Positions 1 through 14,516 of a DNA stretch of 64,000 nucleotides are shown piece by piece. The stretch is from Escherichia phage vB_EcoM_G53. The notes beneath the pieces are model-generated. The model searched no databases and was not told the DNA's origin. It saw only the letters and a program-made list of their open reading frames with translations. A program made the position numbers and the translations under genes. The stretch is from the sequence record MK327943.1. One strand, given 5' to 3'. Numbering within the stretch: position 1 is the first letter of the stretch; the number at the start of each line of letters is the position of its first letter.

Positions 1-252
1 AAGTTTAGCATTACCCAAGATTCCGCGAACGGCTTTATCAATGTCTTCATTAAATAGCTTTTCAGCCTCATCAAGGGTAATTGTACCGTTGCATTTATGA
101 CCGATCATTCTGTCAAGTTCAGCTTTAGCTACGGCTAAAGACGGGTTCTTTGTTACCAAATGGCCTATGCCAATCGTCCAAAAGCCTTCGGTGTCTTTGT
201 ATAAAGTCAGTCTAAGACCTTCGTCATTACGAAGCATTTCAAATATATTCAT
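1..252 (-). CDS. e: endolysin (T4-type lysozyme e), N-terminal 84 codons; 3' end lies beyond the window start
   Basis: Minus-strand ATG at 252 reads [24 protein letters not shown], near-identical to the T4 lysozyme N-terminus; frame open to position 1. Confidence 0.9.
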
Positions 253-280
253 AATACCTCCCACGTTTATAGGAGGTATT
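253..280 (-). promoter_or_regulatory. stem-loop sequestering the Shine-Dalgarno of gene e (AAUACCUCC / GGAGGUAUU, 9-bp stem) with a late-promoter-like TATAAACG in the loop
   Basis: Perfect 9-bp inverted repeat 253-261 / 272-280 whose 3' arm is the GGAGG of the e RBS; T4 is known to control lysozyme translation this way. Confidence 0.55.
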
Positions 281-286
281 TATTAC

Positions 287-745
287 TTATAGGAGTGTAG
301 TGAGCACCTTATATAATGATTTACCCATTACATATTCCCATTGAGAAGGTTTAATTAAAGCGAATGCATCAAATTCAGGAATCTGTCGTCCGTCTGGGAA
401 TGTATGATAGGAATTACAAACACTGTTTCTGAATTGCTCGTGCTCTACAGGGATGGTATATAGGAACAGATGAATATTCTTATTGTCTGAGTAATGATGT
501 TCACCTAGGTCTTTCAGGAAGGCAGGGTCATATTGTGTAAACCCGGTTTCTTCTTCGCATTCGCGAATAGCGGCTTCAATAGGAGATTCGCCAGGTTCGA
601 CACGGCCTTTAGGAATATCCCACCGATGAGCTAATGCACCTTTAGGACGAGAACCAGTTACACGGCCCATGAATAACTCTTTATCTTTTGACATGAAGAT
701 AATACCGGCTGATAGCTCTTTCACTTTATTTTTCTTACTCATCAT
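287..745 (-). CDS. nudE: Nudix hydrolase NudE
   Basis: 152 aa; Nudix box GRVEPGESPIEAAIRECEEETG; directly after e as in T4. Confidence 0.85.
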   Translation of the reverse strand: MMSKKNKVKELSAGIIFMSKDKELFMGRVTGSRPKGALAHRWDIPKGRVEPGESPIEAAIRECEEETGFTQYDPAFLKDLGEHHYSDNKNIHLFLYTIPVEHEQFRNSVCNSYHTFPDGRQIPEFDAFALIKPSQWEYVMGKSLYKVLTTLL

Positions 746-971
746 CTCGGTCCCATGATTTGGCCATTAATTCGGACATAAATTCTTCAATGCGCGTTTC
801 TTTAGATGGACTTTCACTATTAGAGACCGCAAGTTTGTAATCTGCAATAGGACAGAACATATCAAGGTCCATATTAAGGTCGTCTTTGATTTTTTCTTCT
901 GACACATCTTTATCGTATGTGTACAGATAACTATCACATGATTCTGATTTAATGTAAATTGCTATACTCAT
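735..971 (-). CDS. hypothetical protein (78 aa)
   Basis: ORF track 735..986; start moved to ATG 971 (SD AGGAA, ATGA overlap with upstream stop). Confidence 0.5.
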   Translation of the reverse strand: MSIAIYIKSESCDSYLYTYDKDVSEEKIKDDLNMDLDMFCPIADYKLAVSNSESPSKETRIEEFMSELMAKSWDRDDE

Positions 972-1447
972 CTCAAATTCCTGCATTCGGTAATAAAACG
1001 TTCAACTTCATTATTCTTGGCTTTTATCTTGTCTTTATGTTCTTGTAAACTACTTTTAATAAGATTAATAATGATAGCGACGGTGCCGCCGCCAATGATG
1101 CCACCAATAATACTTACGATAGTAGATGCTAATAAGATAGCAATAATATCAACAAAACCGAAAGAACTCACCTTAGTACTAAAAAACCATACCGACGGTA
1201 CAAATATAATCCATCCTGTTATCCATTGGCACTTATTGAAAAACTTTTCAAGCTCAGCTTGAGTTGTTCGTATTACTTCATCGATAGGTTGATATCCATT
1301 AATGTATCTGTTCACGATAATACCTGCTGGCTGGTCGATTTTAAATTCTTGGCAAATATGTTTCACTAAGTAGGATGGACATCCTGTCCAATCTACTGAA
1401 TAGTATGAAATACCTTCGTTGCCATCGTCTATATTATTGTTAATCAT
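968..1447 (-). CDS. small membrane protein with C-terminal ExFIxECR tail (family member 1)
   Basis: 159 aa; hydrophobic stretches WIIFVPSVWFF and IIAILLASTIVSIIGGIIGGGTVAIIINLI; ends ERFITECRNLR; TAATG overlap with upstream gene. Confidence 0.55.
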   Translation of the reverse strand: MINNNIDDGNEGISYYSVDWTGCPSYLVKHICQEFKIDQPAGIIVNRYINGYQPIDEVIRTTQAELEKFFNKCQWITGWIIFVPSVWFFSTKVSSFGFVDIIAILLASTIVSIIGGIIGGGTVAIIINLIKSSLQEHKDKIKAKNNEVERFITECRNLR

Positions 1448-2133
1448 TACCAGCCTTCCATAGGGAATTCCAGATAAACTTGAGCATTGACACGAATTTC
1501 ATTGGTAATCTTTTTAACTCGGTCTGTATTACGAGATACACGTCCGAACCAACGCCATCCATTACTAATTGCACGAGAACCAGTGTGCCATGTTTGCCAA
1601 TCAAACTGAAGAAGAGTACGGTCTGGAGCTTCCCATTTCTCTAGTTCACCTTTTTCAATTTTTTCGAGGACTTCTTTGTGCCACTGACGATAGATAAGTT
1701 CGCCATCAGGAATCTGACTGAACTCTGCAGTTCCTGTTGCAAAATGAGTAGGACACACATCAGCGTTAACAAGACCAAGAATATGTTCAGAATGGTAACG
1801 AGGGTTGTCATAGTCAGGTTGTCCTGCAGTAATAAAGTGTTGTCCAACTGGAATATCAGGGCGTGGAACATCGTCATGGTGATATCCAGGAATAGCAGGG
1901 TACCAACCAGGCATCAGCATATGAACCCGAGAATCAAATACAACATGTTGATTAGTCCAATCAATTGGGAGATTGGCAATAAAGCTACGAGTGATTGAGC
2001 CACCATTATCCCAAGCAAAACCCAAATCACAATTAAAGAACATTGGTTCATTTTTGATTCGGTCATTTTGTACGTTATGTGCAAAACTACCAACTGCACG
2101 AGCTTGACTATTAAACACTTTAGAACTATTCAT
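1447..2133 (-). CDS. hypothetical protein (228 aa); tentative 2OG-Fe(II) oxygenase-like residue pattern
   Basis: Long ORF with ATG and coupling to flanking genes; HHDD ... WHTGSR ... GRVSR pattern loosely resembles HxD...H...RxS; not verified. Confidence 0.55.
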   Translation of the reverse strand: MNSSKVFNSQARAVGSFAHNVQNDRIKNEPMFFNCDLGFAWDNGGSITRSFIANLPIDWTNQHVVFDSRVHMLMPGWYPAIPGYHHDDVPRPDIPVGQHFITAGQPDYDNPRYHSEHILGLVNADVCPTHFATGTAEFSQIPDGELIYRQWHKEVLEKIEKGELEKWEAPDRTLLQFDWQTWHTGSRAISNGWRWFGRVSRNTDRVKKITNEIRVNAQVYLEFPMEGW

Positions 2134-2134
2134 A

Positions 2135-2440
2135 TTATTTTCCTCGACATTCTTTAATGAAATTTTCTAGATTGGTAGATTCAATAGCTTTTTTACGAGC
2201 TTCTGTGTGTTCTTCTTCGGACAATTTACGTTTATAATTGACCCAGACATTATGGTCGAAACCAGACGTGGCATATAATAACAAAGCTCCAACGAATAGC
2301 AAAAATGGTGATAAAAATATACAACCAGGAACACCATCCATACTGTAAGCCTTTTGTAATACTGCAACAGAAAGAGTTGCGTAAAAAGGTGATGCAAGTA
2401 TTGTTAAAAGGCCAATTCGGTTGGTTTCGCCTAATTTCAT
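2135..2440 (-). CDS. small membrane protein with C-terminal ExFIxECR tail (family member 2)
   Basis: 101 aa; two hydrophobic segments; ends LENFIKECRGK; first gene after PeSL promoter at 2461-2498. Confidence 0.55.
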   Translation of the reverse strand: MKLGETNRIGLLTILASPFYATLSVAVLQKAYSMDGVPGCIFLSPFLLFVGALLLYATSGFDHNVWVNYKRKLSEEEHTEARKKAIESTNLENFIKECRGK

Positions 2441-2460
2441 AATATTCTCCTCATGTTTTA

Positions 2461-2498
2461 ATAGGACTACTATAATATAGCCCTATCAGTTTGTACAC
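2461..2498 (-). promoter_or_regulatory. early promoter with inverted repeat (PeSL-type), weaker -35 (TGTACA)
   Basis: Minus strand TGTACA-N17-TATAGT; inverted repeat ATAGGACT / AGCCCTAT brackets the -10. Confidence 0.45.
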
Positions 2499-2699
2499 TT
2501 ATTTTGACATTTCTTCGATGTCACGACGATACCCATCACGAACTTCACGAAGAGCTTCAAGGCCACACATAGGCTCGATACCAGTAATGTGAACTTGATT
2601 AATCTGATACTCTACATCTTCTAACTGAGCGAAAACATAACGACGTTCTGCTGCACAACCAGGTTTAGCTTTACCGAAACGTTTATTCAAAGTAGTCAT
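2499..2699 (-). CDS. hypothetical protein (66 aa)
   Basis: ORF track 2499..2717; start placed at ATG 2699 preceded by GGAG; lies between two PeSL promoters. Confidence 0.5.
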   Translation of the reverse strand: MTTLNKRFGKAKPGCAAERRYVFAQLEDVEYQINQVHITGIEPMCGLEALREVRDGYRRDIEEMSK

Positions 2700-2728
2700 T
2701 TTTATATCTCCATTCACTCATTTGTTTT

Positions 2729-2766
2729 GATAGGTCTATAGTATCAACAACTACAGACCTTGTAAA
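2729..2766 (-). promoter_or_regulatory. early promoter (PeSL-type)
   Basis: Minus strand TTTACA (2761-2766) - 17 bp - TACTAT (2738-2743); short inverted repeat TGATA / TATCA around the -10. Confidence 0.6.
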
Positions 2767-2779
2767 CTGTTTTGCGAAA

Positions 2780-3736
2780 TTATTTGAAAGGTTTTACCAT
2801 ATGGAAATTTTGTTTGAAACGTTTGACGTAATCGTCGTGTCCTAAGCTTTGGTACATACTTACTACTTTGCTATAATTTTCCCAAGCGAACTCACGGAAC
2901 CATCCTGATGTGATTGATGTACAGACCTTTTCAAGGGCCATCATAAAACTATCACGTGGATGGATTTTAAAGTCGTTAGGAATCTGTGAACGTTCAAGAG
3001 CTAATACACAAGCTTCTTCATATACACCGGCTAATTTAACCATTTCTGGTAATGATTCGAACTTCTCGCGTGATGTCATAACTTCTGAGCCTTCTTTCAT
3101 ATAAAACTTATAAGCAGGCTGGTCAGTTAGTGCAATGGCTTCATGGATAGTATCATGGTCATACGTATAGATGTCATCTTTAAAGAACGCACTTTTAGAA
3201 GTGTCAAGAACTGGGTGAGCATAATTCAAGGTTTCTTTCTGGCGTTTCAGCATAATTTCAGTAAGTTCATCGTTCAGTGTAACACCTTTACCACGAAGAT
3301 ACTGAATATGGTTCATAGTCTTTAAAAAGAATGGATTATTTTTCTTGAAACGATGAGACATCTTAATTGCAAGACATATCTCAGGAGTTGCCCAGTAAAA
3401 CCCGTTCAAACGGTCTTTAGTCAAATTTTTCTTGGCGTATTTTAAAAGGTCATAAGAAGACGTGAAATCTTCAGGAGTGAGTTCACCGACTAGTTCGCGA
3501 ACGTTAGTGAGAGCCGGAACGATGTATGCTTCAAAATGAGTTTCGCGTCCATTATGGAAGCATTTGAAAACTTGGACATCAGGGTTATCTTGGTGAACAT
3601 ATACACCCATCATTTGATTTTTGAATGCATTCCAAGAACCTTGGTCCGCAATAAAGTCCCAATCACTATTTTTAATAGCGCTAGAATCAATAAGACCGTG
3701 ATAGTGAAGTGCACGAGAACCAATAACTAACATCAT
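2780..3736 (-). CDS. hypothetical protein (318 aa); N-terminal GS...DWD is weakly nucleotidyltransferase-like
   Basis: Long ORF, SD GAGGAAAAT upstream of ATG 3736; motif IGSRALHYHG...SDWDF; no secure domain call. Confidence 0.6.
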   Translation of the reverse strand: MMLVIGSRALHYHGLIDSSAIKNSDWDFIADQGSWNAFKNQMMGVYVHQDNPDVQVFKCFHNGRETHFEAYIVPALTNVRELVGELTPEDFTSSYDLLKYAKKNLTKDRLNGFYWATPEICLAIKMSHRFKKNNPFFLKTMNHIQYLRGKGVTLNDELTEIMLKRQKETLNYAHPVLDTSKSAFFKDDIYTYDHDTIHEAIALTDQPAYKFYMKEGSEVMTSREKFESLPEMVKLAGVYEEACVLALERSQIPNDFKIHPRDSFMMALEKVCTSITSGWFREFAWENYSKVVSMYQSLGHDDYVKRFKQNFHMVKPFK

Positions 3737-3764
3737 AATATTTTCCTCGGATTAATTCATTAAC

Positions 3765-4004
3765 TTAAATTTCACGACATGCGATATTATATTCATCCCA
3801 GAGGTCATCATGTGAAGCCTCTACCAATGGAACGATTGTACCGTTTATGTCTTCATTATAAGGGCAAATTGTACAGTGCGCATCTTCGAATCGGATGCCT
3901 TTGTGTTCAGATTTTTTATAACGCATATCGAATATCTTTGCAAACTTTTCACGAGTAATGGTTTTACCAACCACTTTGGTTCCGATACTTTCGTAATAAA
4001 TCAT
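3765..4004 (-). CDS. hypothetical protein (79 aa), Cys/His-containing
   Basis: ORF track 3765..4016; ATG 4004 has GGAG 8 nt upstream while ATG 4016 has no SD; contains HCTICPYNED. Confidence 0.5.
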   Translation of the reverse strand: MIYYESIGTKVVGKTITREKFAKIFDMRYKKSEHKGIRFEDAHCTICPYNEDINGTIVPLVEASHDDLWDEYNIACREI

Positions 4005-4023
4005 TGTGGACTCCATTTGTTTT

Positions 4024-4061
4024 GATAGGACTACTATAACATAGCCCTATCTTGTTGTAAA
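4024..4061 (-). promoter_or_regulatory. early promoter (PeSL-type)
   Basis: Minus strand TTTACA (4056-4061) - 17 bp - TATAGT (4033-4038); inverted repeat ATAGGACT / AGCCCTAT brackets the -10. Confidence 0.65.
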
Positions 4062-4066
4062 CTGTT

Positions 4067-4264
4067 TTAGCAAGAATAACTAGATGATACCCAGCCTTGA
4101 ACAGTGATACTATTGTGGGATAATGAGATCGCGTCCTGGAGATTCAGACCTGCGTTATCTTCAATCCATAATGTAACTTCTTCGCGTTCTTCTGTTGCAA
4201 TTTGGAACAGGTTTTCCAGAGCAGCTACTGCCGTACGTACAGCACAATCTAATTCACGAGACAT
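4067..4264 (-). CDS. small protein, GxWVxSSxxC C-terminal family (paralog 3 of 3, 65 aa)
   Basis: Ends VQGWVSSSYSC; SD TAAGGAAAC overlapping upstream stop; third of three tandem paralogs. Confidence 0.55.
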   Translation of the reverse strand: MSRELDCAVRTAVAALENLFQIATEEREEVTLWIEDNAGLNLQDAISLSHNSITVQGWVSSSYSC

Positions 4265-4273
4265 ATTGTTTCC

Positions 4274-4546
4274 TTAGCAAGTGTGAGAAGATGCGACCCA
4301 ACCACCAGTTTCGAGGCTCAGGTTGTAGTCGTATTGGTAAACGTCAGCCCATTCAGCATAGCCGTTTTTTGTACAACGTTCAAGATCGGCTTTAAGATGT
4401 CCGGGTGAATGATAGGTTCCACCCATACCATAAGCTGGGTACAAGTTGAACGTTGTGTTTTGTTTATCAGCAATTTCTTTGGCAGCCTCAATAGCTGCAT
4501 AGATTTTTGCTACAGCTTCAGCCAGTTCGGTTTGTTCTTTAGACAT
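4274..4546 (-). CDS. small protein, GxWVxSSxxC C-terminal family (paralog 2 of 3, 90 aa)
   Basis: Ends TGGWVASSHTC; shares YGxGGTY with paralog 1; SD TAAGGAAT overlapping upstream stop. Confidence 0.55.
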   Translation of the reverse strand: MSKEQTELAEAVAKIYAAIEAAKEIADKQNTTFNLYPAYGMGGTYHSPGHLKADLERCTKNGYAEWADVYQYDYNLSLETGGWVASSHTC

Positions 4547-4555
4547 AACGATTCC

Positions 4556-4861
4556 TTAGCACAACGCAGAAGACGAAACCCAAGCACCTTCAGTAATAAC
4601 GTAACCATTACCTTCACGCTTAACATCGCCACCATTATTTTCAATTTCATCTTTCATCCACTGGGATACGATTTCACCCTTAGGATAATAAGTACGACCG
4701 CTACCATAATCACCTACAGAAAATGATACGGCATATTGGTCTGCGATCTTTGTTGCTTCTTCTTCGATACGTTCAGCTTGATTCAGAAGTTTATAAATTG
4801 CATCTGAAGCGGATTTGGCATCATTAAACTCTGGTACTTTAATTTCAATAATCTTACTCAT
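4556..4861 (-). CDS. small protein, GxWVxSSxxC C-terminal family (paralog 1 of 3, 101 aa)
   Basis: Ends EGAWVSSSALC; ATGA start/stop overlap with upstream membrane protein gene. Confidence 0.55.
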   Translation of the reverse strand: MSKIIEIKVPEFNDAKSASDAIYKLLNQAERIEEEATKIADQYAVSFSVGDYGSGRTYYPKGEIVSQWMKDEIENNGGDVKREGNGYVITEGAWVSSSALC

Positions 4862-5217
4862 TTTCTACATTCCTTAATAAAGTTTTCGATTGTTTCATTT
4901 TCACGTTTAGCTAGAAGTTCATTATAACTAATCATTTGAGAAGCGTAAATCTTTTTATTTTTCTTGTTATGGTTTATAAAATCGTAGTAAAAATAGACTA
5001 CAGTACAAAATGATGCGATGGATGCAAAGGCTTGGGTATACCGTAAGTCCTGCCATTGGTCTGTGAATCCACCAGTGTTCCCTATAAATCCTAACACAAC
5101 GCCGTCAATAAGAAATCCAACTAATCCAAAGGCAAATCCCATGCCAATACTCATAATAAAAATTAGAATGTTCTCACCAAGAGAAGGCCATACGGTTAAG
5201 AGTTGAGGCTTTTGCAT
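4858..5217 (-). CDS. small membrane protein with C-terminal ExFIxECR tail (family member 3)
   Basis: 119 aa; hydrophobic segments; ends IENFIKECRK; SD TTAAGGAAATAAG upstream. Confidence 0.55.
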   Translation of the reverse strand: MQKPQLLTVWPSLGENILIFIMSIGMGFAFGLVGFLIDGVVLGFIGNTGGFTDQWQDLRYTQAFASIASFCTVVYFYYDFINHNKKNKKIYASQMISYNELLAKRENETIENFIKECRK

Positions 5218-5591
5218 CTTATTTCCTTAACGAATTCCATAGCTTCTTCATATTCATACTTTTTAACAGCTTCATCATACTGAGCTTGGGCTTTTGCGCA
5301 CTGAACTTTCCATTCTCTTAATCGGGCTCTGTGATGACGGCCTTGGTGCCAATATCCTACCCAATTAATAGGCATTAATAAAAACGGTACAATAAGTGGT
5401 GCGACGAACATTAATGAAAATGCTGCATCAGACGATATAACTTCACTAGAATCTAAAACAGCTCCTATAATCATAAAGATTAAAAATGCTAAAGCTAAAA
5501 TAGGGCCAAATAATACTTCATTTGGGATTAATTTACGCTTGTATTCATACGCCCAGGGCTTACTTGGCATGTATAGGGTTGGCTTTGACAT
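5196..5591 (-). CDS. small membrane protein with ExFVKEIRC-type C-terminal tail (family member 4)
   Basis: ORF track 5196..5621; start moved to ATG 5591 (MSKPTLYM) just after the conserved tail codons of the upstream gene; hydrophobic segments. Confidence 0.5.
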   Translation of the reverse strand: MSKPTLYMPSKPWAYEYKRKLIPNEVLFGPILALAFLIFMIIGAVLDSSEVISSDAAFSLMFVAPLIVPFLLMPINWVGYWHQGRHHRARLREWKVQCAKAQAQYDEAVKKYEYEEAMEFVKEIRCKSLNS

Positions 5592-6162
5592 ATTCTCTAC
5601 ATTCCATAATAAATTGCTCAAGGATTAAATTGTTAGTGAAATTAGGACTAACAACCATAGTTTCATAAAGCGCATCAATAGCACTTAAAGCATCAACTCT
5701 TTTAAGCAAAGGCTTGCCTTCATACATAGTTTCAGAATCGATGATTAACGTAAAGTAATATTTTTTATTATCGACTAGAACTTCTGTATCGATATAAAAC
5801 ATATTAGACCTCAGAAGCTTATCTCTAAAGCCATAATAATCTTCAGAGCGTTCGCTGATATATTCCCATTCAGTGTTTAAACAACAAACAGACCACGTAG
5901 GAGCAACGAAATCAGTGAATCTAATATCATGGTCTGCAACTAGTTTAGCAATAGCTCCGATATCATGAATCATAATACCTGGGGCTAATAAAGATTTTCT
6001 GCTATGGCTAGCCGTTTTCTCGGTGGTCTCATAAGAAGACGACCAGTACCATTTACGTCCGGTTGCAACATATCGTAATGAATCAACTAAAGACGTAGGT
6101 GGATTTACCTTATCTCGGAACTCTTCGAACATTGAGTCAATATCATTATTTTGGTTTCGCAT
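5560..6162 (-). CDS. hypothetical protein (200 aa) with ExFIMECR motif near C-terminus
   Basis: ORF track 5560..6183 begins at TTG; ATG 6162 has a strong AAGGAG SD; contains LEQFIMECREY. Confidence 0.55.
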   Translation of the reverse strand: MRNQNNDIDSMFEEFRDKVNPPTSLVDSLRYVATGRKWYWSSSYETTEKTASHSRKSLLAPGIMIHDIGAIAKLVADHDIRFTDFVAPTWSVCCLNTEWEYISERSEDYYGFRDKLLRSNMFYIDTEVLVDNKKYYFTLIIDSETMYEGKPLLKRVDALSAIDALYETMVVSPNFTNNLILEQFIMECREYVKANPIHAK

Positions 6163-6181
6163 GTTAACTCCTTTATTATCC

Positions 6182-6203
6182 AAAAGGAGGACCGGAGTCC
6201 TCC
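6182..6203 (-). terminator. hairpin plus short U-run (weak terminator or attenuator) between operon genes
   Basis: GGAGGAC-CGGA-GTCCTCC perfect 7-bp stem followed by UUUU on the minus strand; sits in the leader of the next gene. Confidence 0.45.
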
Positions 6204-6211
6204 GTATTATT

Positions 6212-6805
6212 TTATTTCAAAGAGTTAATATATTCTTGTACATCAGCAGAAGTGGTTTCGACGCCGGCTGGAGTGCCATTGAACGTTTCAACACGAGTCA
6301 GAGTGTCTTCGATATCAACCTTAGTCAGTGCAGCTATTTCAATTACATCATCGGCCGTAGAGATACCAAGGGCATTAGCTGCTCGAGTTTCACGAATGTA
6401 TTCGAGTTTGATTGCCAGATTCTGACGAGCATCGTCAAGTTCAACCACCTTACGAGCAATTTCAATTCGCATAGCGGCATACCCGTCAGCTTTTGTATTA
6501 AGTTGTTCGGCAGTTCGACGATACAGAAGACCAAGCTTAGCATGCATAGTAACATCTTGTCCTTCAGCCAGGAGCTTACGAATTTCACGTTCCTTAGAAG
6601 CGGCTTGCTTGTTCTTTTCATTAACAAGTTCGCGAATACGTTTTTCTTCATTAATAGATTTAACAGAAGCCGTTTTTAGTTCTTTGATTTGGGTAATCAA
6701 CTTATCTGCAGCTGCGTTATACTGTTCTTCGACAGTCAGATTTTTAGCCATAGCAGTACCCAGTTTAGTGCGGATGAATTCAACAAGTTTCTTCAGTGTG
6801 TTCAT
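6212..6805 (-). CDS. coiled-coil protein (197 aa); weak resemblance to PspA/IM30-type proteins, unverified
   Basis: ORF track 6212..6820 begins at TTG; ATG 6805 preceded by AAGGT; Lys/Glu/Ala/Arg-rich heptad-like sequence; first gene after promoter at 6841-6875. Confidence 0.55.
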
Positions 6806-6840
6806 ATTATTACCTTTCAATTGGTGGTTTATTATCCAAT

Positions 6841-6875
6841 GAGAGCATTATACTCTGCTCTCAAGAGTTTGTAAA
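6841..6875 (-). promoter_or_regulatory. early promoter (PeSL-type) with consensus -10
   Basis: Minus strand TTTACA (6870-6875) - 17 bp - TATAAT (6847-6852); inverted repeat GAGAGC / GCTCTC brackets the -10. Confidence 0.65.
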
Positions 6876-7103
6876 TTATTTTTTAATCAAATTGACATAA
6901 AACTTGGCGTCTTCTGGGTGCATGCCTTCGCAGTATTCTTCAACCATGAACTTCTTAACAGCTTCATAAGGACCACTCAGATTAAGCTCAGTTGTCCAGA
7001 ACTTGGAATCTTGGGCTGAATCGATATGAACTTCAGGGTGACGGTTGCGAATAACTTCTTCTGTGTATTCATAATCAACGACATCAATACTAACTTTAGC
7101 CAT
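6876..7103 (-). CDS. hypothetical protein (75 aa)
   Basis: ATG 7103 preceded by GAGAGGAAAA; single-gene cassette between two PeSL promoters. Confidence 0.5.
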   Translation of the reverse strand: MAKVSIDVVDYEYTEEVIRNRHPEVHIDSAQDSKFWTTELNLSGPYEAVKKFMVEEYCEGMHPEDAKFYVNLIKK

Positions 7104-7126
7104 TTTGTTTTCCTCTCATTTGATTT

Positions 7127-7164
7127 GATAGGTCTATAGTAACACCGTCCTTGGTGTTTGTACA
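7127..7164 (-). promoter_or_regulatory. early promoter (PeSL-type), weaker -35 (TGTACA)
   Basis: Minus strand TGTACA - 17 bp - TACTAT (7136-7141); TGATA / TATCA-type flanking repeat. Confidence 0.5.
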
Positions 7165-7668
7165 TCATTTATTTTTAATTTTGCAAATTTTTCCAGCTTC
7201 AATGCACGCAGCATAGATGATGCTCTGGGCAATTTTATTGCTAGTGGACCTTGCAATCACACTAAGAACAATTTCTTTTTCTTCACCACCACATCCCCAG
7301 CTATTTTGCCCATGTGTACCTTTAACTACGGCTGAAACTTCAACAGAACGTCCACCATCAGAAGTCTTAACATCCACAACCCAATCACCGTCTTTCTCAT
7401 TAACCTGTGGTTTATCCCAAGAAATACTAATATATGATTCACCGTCAATAGAAGTCGCCGGGTTTTTCTCTACAGTAAGACCTTCGCTTTCTAACCATTC
7501 AATAGTATTTGAGCATAAATCTGTAGAACATCTCATCGGAAAGCGGCATGATTTTTCACCTTTAGATGCAGCATCATACATCTTTTCCAAAATACGCTTT
7601 TGTACATTTTTAAAAACAACGTCACGCGATTCTTCAGATTTTTTATTCAGTTCAGTATAAAGACTCAT
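7165..7668 (-). CDS. hypothetical protein (167 aa)
   Basis: ATG 7668 preceded by GAGGAAAA; single-gene cassette after PeSL promoter at 7690-7726. Confidence 0.55.
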   Translation of the reverse strand: MSLYTELNKKSEESRDVVFKNVQKRILEKMYDAASKGEKSCRFPMRCSTDLCSNTIEWLESEGLTVEKNPATSIDGESYISISWDKPQVNEKDGDWVVDVKTSDGGRSVEVSAVVKGTHGQNSWGCGGEEKEIVLSVIARSTSNKIAQSIIYAACIEAGKICKIKNK

Positions 7669-7689
7669 AATGTTTTCCTCATTTGTTTT

Positions 7690-7726
7690 GATAGGTCTAT
7701 AGTATCATACCTCAAGGAGAAGTAAA
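7690..7726 (-). promoter_or_regulatory. early promoter (PeSL-type)
   Basis: Minus strand TTTACT - 16 bp - TACTAT (7699-7704). Confidence 0.5.
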
Positions 7727-7761
7727 CAACTTTGTGAAAAATTTATCTGCCCTAGATGCCC

Positions 7762-7788
7762 GAAAGCCCCTTCCTATGGTTGGGGCTT
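7762..7788 (-). other. GC-rich hairpin downstream of the internal-protein-like gene (no U-run)
   Basis: AAGCCCC ... GGGGCTT 7-bp stem; related to the hairpins at 8482-8505 and 50921-50944. Confidence 0.3.
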
Positions 7789-7805
7789 AAGTGATTGTAA
7801 CTTAA

Positions 7806-8432
7806 TTATTTACGGGTTTTTGCATACTGAGCAGCGTCAGCAGCCAAACGACCTGCTTGTCGAAGTTTTTCTTTAATCTCATCATGAAGTGGTTGAGTAT
7901 ACTTCAAACCTTCGATAGTCAAATAAAGACGATAAAGGTCTGGGGTATCAAGGTTGTTGATATGTTGGCCATTACGAAGAATATTGAATTCACGAACGAG
8001 TGAAGACGTATCAGATTCAATATCACGAACAAGCGAAGATAGTTGTTTATATTTTTTTTCCAGGCTAGAAGTATCAAACTTAAGAGCAGGAGCTTTAGGA
8101 GTTGCTTTTACTTCCGGCTTAGGCTCAGGTTTTGCTACTGCTTTAGGGGTCGCAGGTTTAGGAGTGGTAGGAGCAGGTTTCACTTTAGGCGAACCAGATT
8201 TAGCAGAAACACCACCACTAACAATATCTTTGAATGCTTTAGAAGCTCTGTAATATTCTTTTTGGCTGGAAGTGTCGATACCGTACATGGCTTGAACGTT
8301 TTTGAAAAACTCTGTACTAGTTTTTGTACCAGAAATAGCATCGTAAGCAGCTTGCCATTTCTCTTTTGTCATACGTACACCGGCTTCGGTGATTACTTCC
8401 GTTTCGGCTAAAAATTCATTAAAAGTATACAT
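7806..8432 (-). CDS. internal-protein-like capsid cargo candidate (208 aa) with capsid-targeting N-terminus and Pro/Lys-rich linker
   Basis: N-terminus MYTFNEFLAETE resembles the T4 internal-protein targeting sequence MKTYQEFIAE (prohead protease cuts after the LxE motif); low-complexity KPAPTTPKPATPKAVAKPEPKPEVKATPKAP; late promoter TATAAATA 35 nt upstream. Confidence 0.6.
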   Translation of the reverse strand: MYTFNEFLAETEVITEAGVRMTKEKWQAAYDAISGTKTSTEFFKNVQAMYGIDTSSQKEYYRASKAFKDIVSGGVSAKSGSPKVKPAPTTPKPATPKAVAKPEPKPEVKATPKAPALKFDTSSLEKKYKQLSSLVRDIESDTSSLVREFNILRNGQHINNLDTPDLYRLYLTIEGLKYTQPLHDEIKEKLRQAGRLAADAAQYAKTRK

Positions 8433-8467
8433 TGATGGTCCTTAGAAAGTAGGTTTATTGTTTACTA

Positions 8468-8475
8468 TATTTATA
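8468..8475 (-). promoter_or_regulatory. late promoter (TATAAATA) for the internal-protein-like gene
   Basis: Exact TATAAATA on the minus strand about 35 nt upstream of ATG 8432, immediately after the terminator at 8477-8505. Confidence 0.55.
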
Positions 8476-8476
8476 C

Positions 8477-8505
8477 AAAAAAGCCCCGACCTTTCGGAAG
8501 GGGCT
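8477..8505 (-). terminator. rho-independent terminator ending the tRNA/stable-RNA early transcript
   Basis: AGCCCC...GGGGCT stem (imperfect extension, UUCC-type loop) followed by UUUUUU on the minus strand. Confidence 0.7.
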
Positions 8506-8519
8506 ATATACCTTGTCGG

Positions 8520-8800
8520 GGTCCCACCTGCTAAGGCAAGTGTTTGTACGAAACGCCGGGATTCGAACCCGGTTATTAAGCAGTTGACGCTACTCAATAT
8601 TTTTAAAAGGCCATATCTCGACCATATCCGAACGTTCCGTCAAAAACGCTACTCGGCTTACGACAAAGATATTTCCTCGAATCGATAATTCTGTGCGCCG
8701 TTTCTGCTGTGATGTAAGGGGATATTAACAAATCGTAAAGATTTATTAAGACCAGTCCTTACTCAGGGAACATCAGTCCGACGTCTTGCCGGTAGCGACC
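8520..8800 (-). ncRNA. putative stable small RNA(s) with a tRNA-like 3' domain (comparable to T4 species 1/2 RNAs); boundaries approximate
   Basis: About 300 nt non-coding between CDS end 8808 and the terminator; minus strand has a canonical T-arm CCGGGTTCGAATCCCGG plus acceptor-like 3' strand but no complete cloverleaf. Confidence 0.3.
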
Positions 8801-8807
8801 CGGCTTC

Positions 8808-9152
8808 TTATTTTGGCATATCGTCAATTTGCTCTCGACGCCGACGCCATAGATTAATCGCTTCATAGGCACATTCTGCGTTTGGTATATGACGGCAATA
8901 ATATAATGATTCGCGTTTCTGGAACCGATGTTGCAACGGGATTTCGTTTAAAAGGTCTTTACGGTCAAAGTATTCAAAACTAGTTAACCCAGAACGGTTT
9001 TTAAGAAACTTCCAATGTCCGAATTCATTTTGAAAATAAACATAATCAGCATGCTGATACAGCGAATTAATTAACCTATCGGAAATAACTGTTTCACGTT
9101 CGTTAAAATAAAACGTTAAGTCATGAACTACCAGATAAATATTGCCTTTCAT
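8808..9152 (-). CDS. hypothetical protein (114 aa) immediately downstream of the tRNA genes
   Basis: ORF track 8808..9200 would overlap the tRNA; ATG 9152 preceded by GAGGAAAAT is used instead. Confidence 0.5.
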   Translation of the reverse strand: MKGNIYLVVHDLTFYFNERETVISDRLINSLYQHADYVYFQNEFGHWKFLKNRSGLTSFEYFDRKDLLNEIPLQHRFQKRESLYYCRHIPNAECAYEAINLWRRRREQIDDMPK

Positions 9153-9170
9153 ATTTTCCTCACTTGAAGT

Positions 9171-9247
<77 letters not shown>

Positions 9248-9253
9248 AATATA

Positions 9254-9327
9254 TGACCCAGACCAGATTCGAACTGGTAACCTTTCCCTTATGAGGGGAC
9301 TGCTGCTAACCATTGAGCTACAGGGCC
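9254..9327 (-). tRNA. tRNA with CAU anticodon (Met, or Ile with modified C34 as in the T4 tRNA-Ile)
   Basis: Manual fold: acceptor GGCCCTG/CTGGGTC (one mismatch), anticodon loop CTCATAA, T-arm ACCAG-TTCGAAT-CTGGT; D-arm slightly atypical. Confidence 0.65.
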
Positions 9328-9406
9328 TAAATAACTTTCTATTATGAAAGGCACTTTAGAGCACCTTTGGTAATAGAGGGTATGAATTAATAATAACACA
9401 TAATTC

Positions 9407-9922
9407 TTAAAGCAAATCAATCATTTTAACAGTCGGCAAAACGATTTCTTCTTCAATATAAGCAAATTCAACACATTCAACTACGCGCAAGAAATCATAA
9501 TCATAATATTCAGAAGCATGGCCAAGAATATCAATGAGACCTTCTGATACTAAATATCCATTCTCATGGAACAGGTCAAATACACGCGATTCGTCTTCTT
9601 CAGATTTATTACCAAGGTCGACTTCAATATCAAAGACCTTTTTAATGAATTCTGGATAAAGCTGGTCTGAGAACAATCCTTCAACCAAGTATTCATAGAT
9701 TAAAAGCGAACAATCACTGAATAGTGTATTACCACAGTAACGTTCAGCTTTAGTGCTGGAATGACGGCTCTTAAATTTCTTCAAAAGATATTTAAACTGT
9801 TGGAGCTCATGCTCTTCCACACCAAATAATGTTTTGGTTTTATAGTTGTCGCCGTCATTTTCCCAAGTAGTGACATCAATTACGTAACCCTTAGGAATTG
9901 TACTGCCTAAACAAATATTCAT
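9407..9922 (-). CDS. hypothetical protein (171 aa)
   Basis: ATG 9922 preceded by GGTGAG; last ORF of the early operon before the tRNAs. Confidence 0.55.
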   Translation of the reverse strand: MNICLGSTIPKGYVIDVTTWENDGDNYKTKTLFGVEEHELQQFKYLLKKFKSRHSSTKAERYCGNTLFSDCSLLIYEYLVEGLFSDQLYPEFIKKVFDIEVDLGNKSEEDESRVFDLFHENGYLVSEGLIDILGHASEYYDYDFLRVVECVEFAYIEEEIVLPTVKMIDLL

Positions 9923-9926
9923 TTAC

Positions 9927-10217
9927 TCACCGTACCATATTAATGTAATTATATTCAATGCAACATAATTTCAAAGGATTCTTGAAAATATCATATTCAA
10001 GAGGACCTTTTTCTGTTTCAATAAAGAAATCAAAGTTAACTGTGTTAAATTTATCGTCTTCACAGAGTAATTTAACTTGCGAAGATGAACGGTCGATATA
10101 AACCTTTTCAACCTCAAAGTTAGTCAGAATACCGTAGTCGTCGACTAGTGCTTTAGCTGCACGTTGATCGCTTTCATATCCATTCTCAACGGATTTTACC
10201 TTAGCATAAAGAATCAT
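9927..10217 (-). CDS. hypothetical protein (96 aa)
   Basis: ATG 10217 preceded by GGTGGAA; ATGA overlap with upstream gene. Confidence 0.55.
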   Translation of the reverse strand: MILYAKVKSVENGYESDQRAAKALVDDYGILTNFEVEKVYIDRSSSQVKLLCEDDKFNTVNFDFFIETEKGPLEYDIFKNPLKLCCIEYNYINMVR

Positions 10218-10576
10218 GAATGTTCCACCATTTCAAAGGTATGAGCATCAACAATATGATACCAGTCAAAATTTTCTTCTGCGTTTTTATAAATTTCGCG
10301 AAGAGCCTCAACAGTTTTTCCTGTAGCAACAAGGTCGTCAATACCACCAAGAGGATAACAGTCATAACCAGCAAACAGAAGGAAATTAATAGTTTCTGTA
10401 GGTTCTGGATGCAGAACTCCGTTATCGTCTACCACTTCAAAGAAAGTGTAAGAAGGAGTACAAGTTTTAATCCAGGCCCATGCTTGAGCTGCTGAATCAA
10501 ACGGATTACGGAATAAACGACAATCTGGGTCTTTAGAAGGATTTGCTTCAAAATCCGCATATATGTGATATTTCAT
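10214..10576 (-). CDS. hypothetical protein (120 aa)
   Basis: ORF track 10214..10594; start placed at ATG 10576 (MKYHIY) preceded by AAGGTGAG. Confidence 0.55.
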   Translation of the reverse strand: MKYHIYADFEANPSKDPDCRLFRNPFDSAAQAWAWIKTCTPSYTFFEVVDDNGVLHPEPTETINFLLFAGYDCYPLGGIDDLVATGKTVEALREIYKNAEENFDWYHIVDAHTFEMVEHS

Positions 10577-10577
10577 T

Positions 10578-10763
10578 TTACTCACCTTTTGCAATTTTAT
10601 CCATAACGATAGCGATTAAGCCGATTAGAAATGCTACTACCAATGAGATAGAATTTTCTGTTGTTGACAGTAGTCCACAAATGAATCCTACAAACATCGA
10701 AAAACTAAAAGCCATTGAAGCAATTACTACAGCAACATTACGAATCAGTTCAGCGCGTTTCAT
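10578..10763 (-). CDS. small membrane protein (61 aa)
   Basis: ORF track 10578..10784; ATG 10763 preceded by GGAG; one long hydrophobic segment. Confidence 0.5.
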   Translation of the reverse strand: MKRAELIRNVAVVIASMAFSFSMFVGFICGLLSTTENSISLVVAFLIGLIAIVMDKIAKGE

Positions 10764-10791
10764 TTTATTTCTCCATTTACTCATTTGATTT

Positions 10792-10829
10792 GATAGGACT
10801 ACTATAACATAGTCCTATCATCATGTAAA
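10792..10829 (-). promoter_or_regulatory. early promoter (PeSL-type)
   Basis: Minus strand TTTACA (10824-10829) - 17 bp - TATAGT (10801-10806); perfect 8-bp inverted repeat ATAGGACT / AGTCCTAT brackets the -10. Confidence 0.65.
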
Positions 10830-10832
10830 CTA

Positions 10833-11096
10833 TTAAATTCCAGCTTCGCGTTTAACATAATCGACATAAGCTTGGATAGCTTTCTTGCTGGTAATTTTTA
10901 CCTGGCCACGACCATTGCCTTCTTTAGAGTTTTTCTTAACAACTACATTACCATCTTTAACACCCCATACATGGACATAAGTACCGATGTTTCGGTCGTA
11001 GAACATTGCATGGTCGTTGTTGTAAGAGAATGATTCGTAGTTCTCCGACAGAGTAGAAGATTGAGATTCAGCGATAAATTCTTTATACGTTTTCAT
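10833..11096 (-). CDS. internal-protein-like capsid cargo candidate (87 aa)
   Basis: N-terminus MKTYKEFIAES matches the T4 internal-protein capsid-targeting sequence; own PeSL promoter. Confidence 0.6.
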   Translation of the reverse strand: MKTYKEFIAESQSSTLSENYESFSYNNDHAMFYDRNIGTYVHVWGVKDGNVVVKKNSKEGNGRGQVKITSKKAIQAYVDYVKREAGI

Positions 11097-11122
11097 TTGT
11101 TTTTCCGTTTGGTTGTTGATTT

Positions 11123-11160
11123 GATAGGACTACTATAACATAGTCCTATCTGCATGTAAA
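11123..11160 (-). promoter_or_regulatory. early promoter (PeSL-type)
   Basis: Minus strand TTTACA (11155-11160) - 17 bp - TATAGT (11132-11137); same 26-bp palindrome as at 10792. Confidence 0.65.
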
Positions 11161-11164
11161 CTAC

Positions 11165-11452
11165 TTACAGAAGAGTTTTTGCAATAATTTTAAGCTGAGC
11201 TACAGAAATATGCTTAGCTTTAAACAGTGCGGTCTCTTCAGCCGGAGAGATAACAATAGTAGCGCCATCTTTCTTAGCAGACCATCCATCCCCTAAGTAA
11301 ACAGTACCTTTTACTTCTTCGCCATCAACCAGACTAATCATCGGTTTACCCTCACGTCCTTTATTTGCTTTAATAACTTCGGAAGTAAGGGTTGCTTCGG
11401 TCAGAGTAGAAACGTTAGCAACAGGTGATATAAATTCTTTATAGGTTTTCAT
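11165..11452 (-). CDS. internal-protein-like capsid cargo candidate (95 aa), at the position T4 ipI occupies next to 57B
   Basis: N-terminus MKTYKEFIS...LTEA resembles the capsid-targeting sequence; SD AAGGAAAT; orthology to ipI not established. Confidence 0.6.
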   Translation of the reverse strand: MKTYKEFISPVANVSTLTEATLTSEVIKANKGREGKPMISLVDGEEVKGTVYLGDGWSAKKDGATIVISPAEETALFKAKHISVAQLKIIAKTLL

Positions 11453-11480
11453 TTTATTTCCTTGAGGTTGTTTATTTGAT

Positions 11481-11515
11481 AGGATGATAGTAACACACCA
11501 TCATCCTTATGTAAA
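11481..11515 (-). promoter_or_regulatory. early promoter (PeSL-type)
   Basis: Minus strand TTTACA (11510-11515) - 17 bp - TACTAT (11487-11492); inverted repeat AGGATGAT / ATCATCCT brackets the -10. Confidence 0.65.
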
Positions 11516-11529
11516 CTGTTTTGTGAAAA

Positions 11530-12215
<686 letters not shown>

Positions 12216-12219
12216 TTTA

Positions 12220-12954
12220 TTACCTTAAGATTGTTTCAATTTTAGAATAAAGCTCTTCTAAAGAGCCGTCGTTTGTAATAACTAAATCGCCTTCTTCAAT
12301 AGGCAACCCAGCTTCTGTAATATGTTTATCGGTGGATTCCGTACCAGAGCGAACCACATGAATAACTGTAGCACCCATCGCTCTAGCGGTTTCCATTTCA
12401 TGGACTTGGCGTGTATCGGTTACAACATAGTAATCGAAATCACTTCCAATATAATCCATATAGTTTAATGCAAAAAGCTTAACCCAATACATACGGTCAA
12501 ATAAATTAACGACAACATCCGTACCGAGGGCTTGCATAAGACGGCGGATTGACCATGTGTCGTTGATATTATTTATAGCTTCACGCAGGGCTTCATATGG
12601 TTTAATATCTAGATACGAATATCCACCTTCTAACGATGATAATACTTTAACATTATTAATCGGTAAATATTGACTTTGCAAATAAATTAGCGCTTCTTCC
12701 AATAATTCAATAACATCCAACTTATTGAGATTTAATGGTGTTTCACGGTCGTATCCAATGCCTTCAAAGTATTCGTATTTCAACTCTGTGAATACATCAG
12801 GATTTTCAGCATGCCTACGTCCCCAGGCTATTGCTAGAGCGTCTTTAATTGGATATGCTAATTGGTATTTTACGGATTTAAAGTTTGAATTGATGTAATC
12901 AGCAGTGGTGTCTTTACCACTACGTTTGATGCCACTTAAAAAGATTAGCTCCAT
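12220..12954 (-). CDS. 1: deoxynucleoside monophosphate kinase (gp1)
   Basis: 244 aa; N-terminal P-loop FLSGIKRSGKDT; close to my recollection of T4 gp1. Confidence 0.9.
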   Translation of the reverse strand: MELIFLSGIKRSGKDTTADYINSNFKSVKYQLAYPIKDALAIAWGRRHAENPDVFTELKYEYFEGIGYDRETPLNLNKLDVIELLEEALIYLQSQYLPINNVKVLSSLEGGYSYLDIKPYEALREAINNINDTWSIRRLMQALGTDVVVNLFDRMYWVKLFALNYMDYIGSDFDYYVVTDTRQVHEMETARAMGATVIHVVRSGTESTDKHITEAGLPIEEGDLVITNDGSLEELYSKIETILR

Positions 12955-13007
12955 AGGTTTTCCTCATATAATTTATGAGTGATTATAACATACGGAGCTA
13001 GAAGCGA

Positions 13008-13592
13008 TTAACGTAAGGAAGGGTGTCTAGAAATGGATTTAGATTCGACTGCTTGACGTGGTTGTTGAGATACAATGACTTCACCATCCTTTTCTATCGT
13101 CATATACGCATAGTGAATAGTTGCTACGCACGTAACGGCAGGGTCAGAGTCTTCGGTGTAACTAAATTCAATTTCACTCAAATCAGAAATCCATGGTTTA
13201 TAGAAATTCGCCGTCAAAACTACTTCAGTCTTATTGTTGTTTAAAATGTGCAAAGTAACAAACTCAGGACCATCGGAGTGGGCAGTATTATGTCCGGTTA
13301 TATAGTTATTAGTGCTGAGCATCCATTTATACATGTTCATCCAGGACGTCATGTCTTCATCAACTATAAATCGTACAACAAAAGGGTCATATTCAAATGT
13401 GGTGCCTGCACGCATTGCACGTCCTAACCCCATCGTGCCTGTCACAGTTTCAACAACAGGAATTCTCACACCTGGCAATGGAGCCGTTTGGGCATTGAGC
13501 ACAAAACCTGAAGTTCGTGTACTATCCGGGATATCCACAACAAAGTTTGTTATATTTGTTTGGTTAAAAATCTGTCTCGCTGGACGAGTCAT
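13008..13592 (-). CDS. 3: tail completion and sheath stabilizer protein gp3
   Basis: Position between genes 1 and 2 as in T4; ORF track begins at GTG 13598, ATG 13592 preceded by GAGGTG used. Confidence 0.75.
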   Translation of the reverse strand: MTRPARQIFNQTNITNFVVDIPDSTRTSGFVLNAQTAPLPGVRIPVVETVTGTMGLGRAMRAGTTFEYDPFVVRFIVDEDMTSWMNMYKWMLSTNNYITGHNTAHSDGPEFVTLHILNNNKTEVVLTANFYKPWISDLSEIEFSYTEDSDPAVTCVATIHYAYMTIEKDGEVIVSQQPRQAVESKSISRHPSLR

Positions 13593-13694
13593 AAGCACCT
13601 CAAAAACGCTTTAATAAAAATGCAGTATAATGGTTTTAGGTCTCTTCCATTAATCCGGTTCAACAGAATATCAGAAGAACGGAAGAGAATAGAA

Positions 13695-14516
13695 TTAAGA
13701 TTTCCAAACAGTATTCGCAGAGAAACGTTTTCCTTTTGACATAAACTGCTGAGTAGGTAACATGATTATGTTAGCCCAGTCTTTAGGAGCTATTTCTGTT
13801 ATTGTTCCTCTAATGTGGCCTGGCAGGTATGCTTTAATCATTTTGTCAGCACCTTGAAATCCTTTCACCTTGCTCCAGTCTATCTTCAACTTTGTGTTAT
13901 TAGTAATAGTAGTTGTGCTAGCATATTGCTTCAGCAATTCTTCAAGAAACTGTTGACGTGCTTTAGGTGGGATATAGTGCAAGTTTAACCCATACATCAA
14001 ATTATGTTTACCTAATCCTAAATAAATAATCAAAGGATATCTGTCCCAATACGGCAGAGTATCTTTATGTTTAGCATCATACACGTAAGTATAAATTTTG
14101 CCTGGCGTAGGCTTGACTACTTTATGACCTTTTACACTTTTCTTAATTGTTTCAACAAACCACTTAGATGATTTGTTGTTTACTGCTGCGCCTTCATTTC
14201 TAATCTTTTCTCGTATTGAACTGCGAAACGAGTTTATCATCAGAAGTTGACGTTCTTGCTTATTGAGTTTATTTTTAGGTTTAGATTCAAGCGTTTCAAT
14301 TTTCTGTGCAGTTTTAATAGATGATGCATATCTAGACATTGCAGATGTAAACGACGAGTATTTTATTCCTTTTGATTCTGCAAATGCTTTTGCAGTGATT
14401 CCTTTCTCTTTAGCTTTCTTGTATTCTAATCCTATCTCAATCCATTTTCTTTCATTCATAGACTGAGCAATCTTAGGGGCTTGTACGCCTTCAGATATAA
14501 TTTGGAATATGCTCAT
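13695..14516 (-). CDS. 2: DNA end protector protein gp2
   Basis: 273 aa, same size and position as T4 gp2. Confidence 0.8.

Follow-up and report, generated by a model that had tools for sequence, protein, structure and literature searches.

The gene on the minus strand at positions 6212–6805 of a 64,000-nucleotide stretch of Escherichia phage vB_EcoM_G53 (record MK327943.1; the whole stretch analyzed is hereafter called the window) is, as judged from its sequence, an ortholog of T4 e.6. We propose that this gene encodes a compact and highly diverged phage relative within the PspA/IM30/Vipp1 (bacterial ESCRT-III) superfamily, expressed early and protecting the inner membrane, a combined reading that we favor with moderate confidence. 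Its parts are not equally secure: the e.6 family very probably forms a genuine branch of the PspA/IM30 superfamily, and a membrane-protective function is, once that homology is granted, reasonably likely. The homology spans helix α0 and the α1/α2-3 hairpin, and the C-terminal ~50 residues are not demonstrably α4/α5. Since it combines remote homology with a presumed function, we put the claim forward as a well-founded hypothesis rather than as a demonstrated finding.

The open reading frame (ORF) extends from an ATG at 6805–6803 to a TAA at 6214–6212 and encodes 197 amino acids. A TTG at 6820 was given as an alternative start in the mechanically generated ORF list; the ATG was taken as the start because all homologs begin at the equivalent Met and a Shine–Dalgarno sequence lies 7 nucleotides before it. 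Lys, Glu, Ala, and Arg make up 39.6% of the product and Asp, Glu, Lys, and Arg 32%. The highest Kyte–Doolittle 19-residue mean was only 1.06, well under the transmembrane value, indicating that the protein has no transmembrane segment. An initial annotation of this DNA, made from the letters alone, had described a largely helical 197-residue product that was rich in Lys/Glu/Ala/Arg, devoid of hydrophobic segments, and possibly PspA/IM30-like. The composition and hydropathy values, together with the ~78% helix in AlphaFold models, bear out the physical description, and the proposed likeness is supported as well, albeit only via the intermediates described below.

The neighboring genes in the window are typical of a T4-like phage (NudE, two tRNAs, 57B, 57A, deoxynucleoside monophosphate kinase, gp3, and gp2), and the 5-kb region around the gene is 96–99% identical to RB69/Mosigvirus-type Escherichia phages. 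The protein matched phrog_1203 (“unknown function”) at E 5e-87, had counterparts of 100% identity in mobillu, APCEc01, and Mizar, and showed 88–89% identity to the product of the gene annotated as e.6 in T4-type phages, a name used in Shfl2, Aeromonas phage 65, and 44RR2.8t. A tblastn search detected it in 1,101 phage records, with hosts including Escherichia, Klebsiella, Shigella, Aeromonas, Enterobacter, and Yersinia. The homologs are labeled “hypothetical protein” or, in some records, “host specificity protein”, and we found no supporting basis for the latter label. T4 e.6 itself (UniProt P39224; 69312–69905, minus strand, 197 amino acids) is assigned to the early class for RNA and to the middle class for protein in PMC9697503, and is therefore transcribed and translated.

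The connection to PspA/IM30 was tested stepwise, starting from A1, a profile built on 25 close homologs with identities of 46% or more. In an exhaustive search of 1.8 billion representative proteins, A1 retrieved only 45 clusters, all of about 200 residues, and canonical PspA was absent among them. Several of these clusters were highly divergent, at 17–25% identity; P0063 (E 6e-17) and P0057 (E 3e-20), which belong to this divergent set, both aligned end to end. When each member of the family alignment was scanned against Pfam, five of the 45 matched PF04012 (PspA_IM30): P0063 (39.0 bits, E 8.9e-10) and P0057 (35.1 bits) lay above the curated cut-off of 33.9, and P0062, P0060, and P0052 lay under it. 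All five matches share one register, in which protein residues 2–7 fall on profile positions 2–3 and the match ends at ~143 of 220; in P0063 and P0057, residues 6–146 correspond to profile positions 2–143. To Synechocystis Vipp1, A1 gave only weak matches (E about 1–2), which were strikingly collinear (residues 5–139 to 5–141). An hhalign comparison of A1 with PspA was dropped, being indistinguishable from its reversed control.

The contigs encoding P0063 and P0057 are phage contigs with genes for UvsX, a gp41-type helicase, and DNA ligase. A tblastn search placed the two proteins in Vi01-like phages (Vi01, SJ3, FEC14, and KpnM-20); e.6 of 44RR2.8t and of RB43 matched them more weakly. About 30 Vi01-like clusters bear a precomputed PF04012 match, and one of them is named “PspA/IM30 family protein” by NCBI. 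Alignment of the T4-type group with the Vi01-type group by hhalign spanned the full 197 residues and so took in the C-terminal region (99.7%, E 2.4e-25), and phrog_1203 contains both groups; by these sequence comparisons, the T4-type and Vi01-type proteins are one family. A scan of viral contigs with the Vi01-like alignment yielded no new members.

We then compared a 59-sequence family profile with known structures and alignments. Against 177,635 distinct PDB sequences, the top eight matches were all Vipp1/PspA (E 3.7e-6 to 4.7e-5; residues 1–145 to 1–146), followed by prefoldin (E 1.7e-3). The profile reached E 4e-6 with cyanobacterial Vipp1 versus 1.2 with E. coli PspA. With hhalign, the family matched a small PspA+Vipp1 alignment at 92.5% (E 4.9e-7; residues 1–138 to 1–140) and a diverse nine-sequence PspA/Vipp1 alignment at 94.5% (E 8e-8), or 96% in global mode. 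The diverse set was assembled from PDB sequences, plasmids, and one unverified phage record; collection searches for PspA gave only enterobacterial PspAs of at least 78% identity. In the controls, the real PspA alignment scored 49 and its reversed version 19, and none of 30 column shuffles exceeded 17.

Structure prediction gave a consistent picture. Two AlphaFold models agree on a helix at residues 2–22, a helix at 25–80, a five-residue turn (the hairpin tip, residues 81–85, EGQDV), a helix at 86–145, and short low-confidence C-terminal helices. The mean predicted local distance difference test scores (pLDDT) were 75.6 and 78.3, with the hairpin above 85–95 and residues 2–22 low (46–55). The hydrophobic moment of α0 was 0.43, versus 0.42 in E. 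coli PspA. According to the models and alignments, the e.6 ortholog thus has the N-terminal amphipathic helix α0 and the long α1/α2-3 hairpin that characterize the PspA/IM30 / ESCRT-III superfamily. In Foldseek searches of the PDB, the top eight matches of the first model were all Vipp1 (best E 1e-3) and the top 11 of the second were Vipp1/PspA-family structures (best E 6e-4); archaeal CdvB2 and Snf7 ranked lower, behind Vipp1/PspA. The region beyond the hairpin has its own family consensus (LGI...DV.E.A.L..VDVD.....V.TF ... D...Y[LI].SLK). Aligned by itself with PspA α4–α5 by hhalign, it was collinear but not significant (E 0.038, 1.4% probability). Only its terminal 10 residues lined up with the “ISEQLAQLKAKM / VEDELAALKASM” end of PspA/Vipp1 (E 0.038), and the last helix weakly resembles the C-terminal “ELAxLKA” motif of PspA/Vipp1.

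Some marks of PspA/IM30 were not recovered. The window protein alone had no PF04012 match in Pfam even at E ≤ 10 (gathering threshold 33.9 bits) and, queried directly, no NCBIfam or PDB-sequence match; BLASTP against E. coli PspA returned nothing. The EDP motif of the α0–α1 linker, whose D24 and P25 are invariant in the assembled PspA/Vipp1 alignment, is absent from e.6: the window protein reads KNLTVEEQ there, and the family consensus is KN.S.ED (pattern KN-x-[ST]-x-E-[DE]), with no proline. Moreover, no Pfam match to Psp partners (pspF, pspB, pspC, or the LiaI type) occurred among the e.6 neighbors in the phage lineages compared. An alternative without any kinship to PspA is that the product is an ordinary coiled coil of two helices or a BAR-like protein with a structural, scaffolding, or “host specificity” role, its profile matches reflecting shared helical composition. 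We consider this unlikely, given that two members exceed the curated Pfam threshold, that every method begins the match at residue 1 of each family and stops it at one and the same helix boundary, that the reversed and shuffled controls fail, and that Vipp1/PspA alone fell under 1e-4 among the PDB sequences. The early transcription (with the protein classed as middle) is also unlike that of virion genes, and the “host specificity” label, as stated above, has no basis that we could find.

If the homology is accepted, the protein could still act otherwise than by protecting the membrane. E. coli PspA α0–α3 carries the PspF-interaction determinants, and this is the part to which e.6 is homologous; the phage protein could therefore serve as a decoy or antagonist that binds PspF and keeps the psp operon off, or that co-polymerizes with host PspA and poisons it. 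A short, different C-terminus would suit a dominant-negative or capping subunit, and early expression would fit as well. However, a host mimic would not be expected to resemble cyanobacterial Vipp1 (E 4e-6) more than E. coli PspA (E 1.2, 9% identity) or to belong to a family spread over hosts of several genera, and we regard such a role as rather improbable. We give similarly little credence to active membrane remodeling, in which e.6 would shape replication or assembly sites, invaginations, or vesicles instead of repairing the membrane. Its superfamily does remodel membranes, according to PMC8281802 and PMC11746142, Foldseek also retrieved archaeal CdvB2 and Snf7, and small membrane-protein genes lie near the e.6 homologs in both phage lineages; on the other hand, no conserved partner was found among the neighbors of the T4-type and Vi01-like genes, and the sequence contains nothing that separates remodeling from stabilization.

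We therefore return to membrane protection as the preferred function. As background, PMC8281802, PMC11746142, and PMC12636044 describe the α0 + hairpin part of PspA/Vipp1 as binding membranes and stacking into polymers, and the homology of e.6 coincides exactly with this membrane-binding and polymerizing core. With the gene, its expression in T4, its fold class, and its homology to PspA/Vipp1 shown here, we infer membrane binding, polymerization, and a benefit to the phage. In this scheme, the e.6 protein would bind the cytoplasmic face of the inner membrane via α0 and the hairpin and self-assemble there into a coat or polymer, which would limit ion leakage and hold the proton-motive force, so that the cell would stay energized until programmed lysis. 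The stresses countered could be DNA injection, the many small phage membrane proteins, superinfection, and membrane-targeting host defenses; early expression would fall at a time when DNA injection has only recently breached the membrane and phage membrane proteins are being inserted into it. The phage thus probably carries its own copy of a host membrane-stress effector. Going further, one could imagine that T4-like and Vi01-like virulent phages carry a bacterial ESCRT-III (PspA/Vipp1-type) membrane-repair polymer of their own, that e.6 is one phage factor by which the inner membrane classically reseals once T4 has infected the cell and by which membrane potential is kept up until the holin triggers, and that it might also counter host defenses that kill by membrane depolarization, a proposal that we offer only tentatively and regard as doubtful in this full form.

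The coordinates of the gene, the parts of its product, and the adjacent putative control elements are listed in the table.

Table. Features of the e.6 ortholog and its flanks in the window
Feature	Position	Strand	Basis
Promoter-like site of sigma-70/T4-early type, TTTACA-17 nt-TATAAT	6847..6875	minus	11/12 matches; in the 70-nt gap upstream of e.6
Shine–Dalgarno-like GAAAGG	6813..6818	minus	7-nt spacer to ATG; read from sequence
Coding sequence of the 197-residue e.6 ortholog, stop codon included	6212..6805	minus	phrog_1203 match and PspA/IM30 homology chain
Amphipathic helix at the N-terminus (residues 2-22), matched with α0 of PspA/Vipp1, which in PspA binds the membrane	6740..6802	minus	AlphaFold models; hhalign register 1 to 1
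Residues 25-80, helix α1, first hairpin arm	6566..6733	minus	pLDDT 83-96; aligned to PspA/Vipp1 α1
Residues 86-145, helix α2/α3, second hairpin arm	6371..6550	minus	pLDDT 79-93; PspA/Vipp1 alignment to ~140-146
Residues 146-197, family-specific C-terminal region	6215..6370	minus	Conserved across family; pLDDT low at 150-181
Hairpin GGAGGAC-UCCG-GUCCUCC (6203-6186) + UUUU (6185-6182)	6182..6203	minus	Between e.6 stop and e.5 Shine–Dalgarno

The hexamers of the promoter-like site are kept in a T4-type phage with a spacer 5 nucleotides shorter, and because of this difference it is treated here as a putative promoter only. Promoter-like sites were no more numerous in this region than shuffled sequences would lead one to expect. 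The initial annotation had set the gene at the head of an operon. The site directly upstream agrees with this placement, but the genes farther upstream are co-oriented with no intervening terminator, making read-through possible. Directly upstream of e.6 (6876–7103, minus strand) lies a gene for a Phage_FRD3 (PF05798) protein (E 6e-38). This frd.3-like protein is the exception to the lack of Pfam matches among the neighbors. Since Shfl2 has e.8 and a small ORF at the FRD3 position, the region upstream of e.6 is mosaic.

Downstream of the gene, the hairpin with a short U-run noted in the same annotation was recovered; it has 7 pairs (5/7 G-C), and its 66-nucleotide context folds at z = -2.8 relative to shuffles. 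T4-type phages have a different stem, GGGGC-UUCG-GCCCC, at the same place and without a U-run, indicating that the hairpin is conserved in position. The T4-type version is a predicted terminator in a T4-like genome paper, and the hairpin may be a weak terminator or an mRNA 3′ stabilizer. The next gene, e.5 (5560–6162, phrog_2607), has a Shine–Dalgarno sequence AAGGAG at 6173–6168 and an ATG from 6162. Its product is soluble, contrary to the earlier mention of downstream membrane proteins, which holds only for e.4 and e.3 beyond it, with one or two hydrophobic helices each.

The neighbors of e.6 are not conserved between the T4-type and Vi01-like lineages. In two Vi01-like contigs (L082, 6650–7210; L084, 6661–7254), the gene right after the PspA-like gene encodes a protein of ~190 amino acids with one N-terminal hydrophobic helix. 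By analogy, it could be a membrane partner like that of the LiaI/LiaH pair, or its position could be a coincidence. The genes downstream of the Vi01-like homologs showed no similarity to e.5 and no PspB, PspC, or other Pfam match. We gave little weight to membrane-protein neighbors because small membrane proteins are common in such regions.

Other features of the window were recorded alongside. Five unrelated minus-strand ORFs (968–1447, 2135–2440, 4858–5217, 5196–5621, and 5560–6162), several of which encode membrane proteins, have a near-identical motif at or near the C-terminus, with the variants ENFIKECRGK, ENFIKECRK, ERFITECRNLR, EQFIMECREY..., and EFVKEIRCK. The motif corresponds to a DNA repeat of ~22 nucleotides (family D4; 976–997, 4860–4881, and 5592–5613) that holds an AAGGA(G/A) Shine–Dalgarno-like core for the overlapping next gene, and the repeat could be a common translational-coupling cassette or a recombination site. 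A second repeat of ~46 nucleotides (family D1) occurs in four copies of 63–100% identity (2450–2495, 2719–2764, 4014–4059, and 7117–7162), which on the minus strand look like T4 early-promoter and leader cassettes preceding genes. Three small tandem paralogs on the minus strand (4067–4264, 4274–4546, and 4556–4861; 65, 90, and 101 amino acids) share a C-terminal G-[AG]-W-V-[SA]-S-S-x-x-C, and the largest matches phrog_899, of unknown function. Only two tRNA genes, Arg(tct) and Met(cat), are present at 9171–9327 on the minus strand; the equivalent locus of T4 holds eight. At 8484–8499 (minus strand) lies a terminator-like hairpin, with GAAA as its loop and a run of U; it resembles the hairpin given for T4 “RNA C” in PMC5931544, and a homolog of this small stable RNA may be encoded nearby; an Rfam search over 1–14000 detected only the two tRNAs and no match at 8484–8499. 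PADLOC returned nothing relevant.

T4 is the best-studied virulent phage, yet its e.6 is still a conserved hypothetical gene. In the literature that we searched, no paper tied T4 e.6, or phages generally, to PspA/ESCRT-III or dealt with e.6 function, and the main text of two Psp phylogenomic surveys does not discuss phage copies. Databases already contain part of this family assignment implicitly, since PF04012 is attached to the Vi01-like orthologs by automated pipelines; the extension of the assignment to T4 e.6 and more than 1,100 orthologs appears not to have been annotated so far. Should e.6 prove to be a working PspA-type protein, the phage itself would supply the effector of the “phage shock” response. 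It would then offer a genetically tractable handle on inner-membrane upkeep, from leakage and its repair following injection to the timing of lysis and to how infected cells withstand abortive-infection systems that target the membrane, and a minimal, partner-free ESCRT-III superfamily member of ~200 residues, possibly useful for structural work.

Among known systems, E. coli PspA (PF04012) has the same layout as e.6: an amphipathic N-terminal helix, a short linker, and a hairpin of ~120 residues with the turn in the same place, aligning collinearly from residue 1 to ~140. Both proteins (222 versus 197 amino acids) are soluble and without a transmembrane segment. They differ in sequence (about 9% identity), in the last 52 residues of e.6, which are conserved within its family and shorter than PspA α4–α5, and in genetic setting, e.6 being a virulent-phage gene with a putative phage early-type promoter instead of sigma-54/PspF control. 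When 50,697 phage records were searched by tblastn for E. coli PspA, only two unverified metagenomic records were returned, suggesting that phage genomes essentially lack canonical PspA. For LiaH of Bacillus subtilis and ESCRT-III, neither a LiaI-like anchor nor a Vps4-like ATPase was detectable near e.6, and the family gave no sequence-level Snf7 signal in Pfam that would connect it with ESCRT-III proper (Snf7, CdvB/CdvB2). Within the phage world, the Vi01-like (Ackermannviridae) “PspA/IM30 family protein” (for example, the conserved uncharacterized protein of Salmonella phage Vi01; P0063, P0219, and P0222) belongs to the same family at ~200 amino acids, with 21–25% identity to the window protein. 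It passes the Pfam PspA_IM30 threshold, unlike the T4-type proteins, and its gene is placed elsewhere in the genome, near uvsX, gene 41, and the ligase gene. Because cyanobacterial Vipp1 is a closer relative of the e.6 family than host PspA is, the family does not represent a recent capture of an enterobacterial gene. Cyanobacterial and plastid Vipp1/IM30 (PDB 7O3W, 6ZVR, and 8QFV) has a long α4–α5 and an extra C-terminal helix α6, and the e.6 family is ~70 residues shorter; Vipp1 provides the best matches in both sequence-profile and Foldseek searches and has the α0–α3 core in common with the phage proteins.
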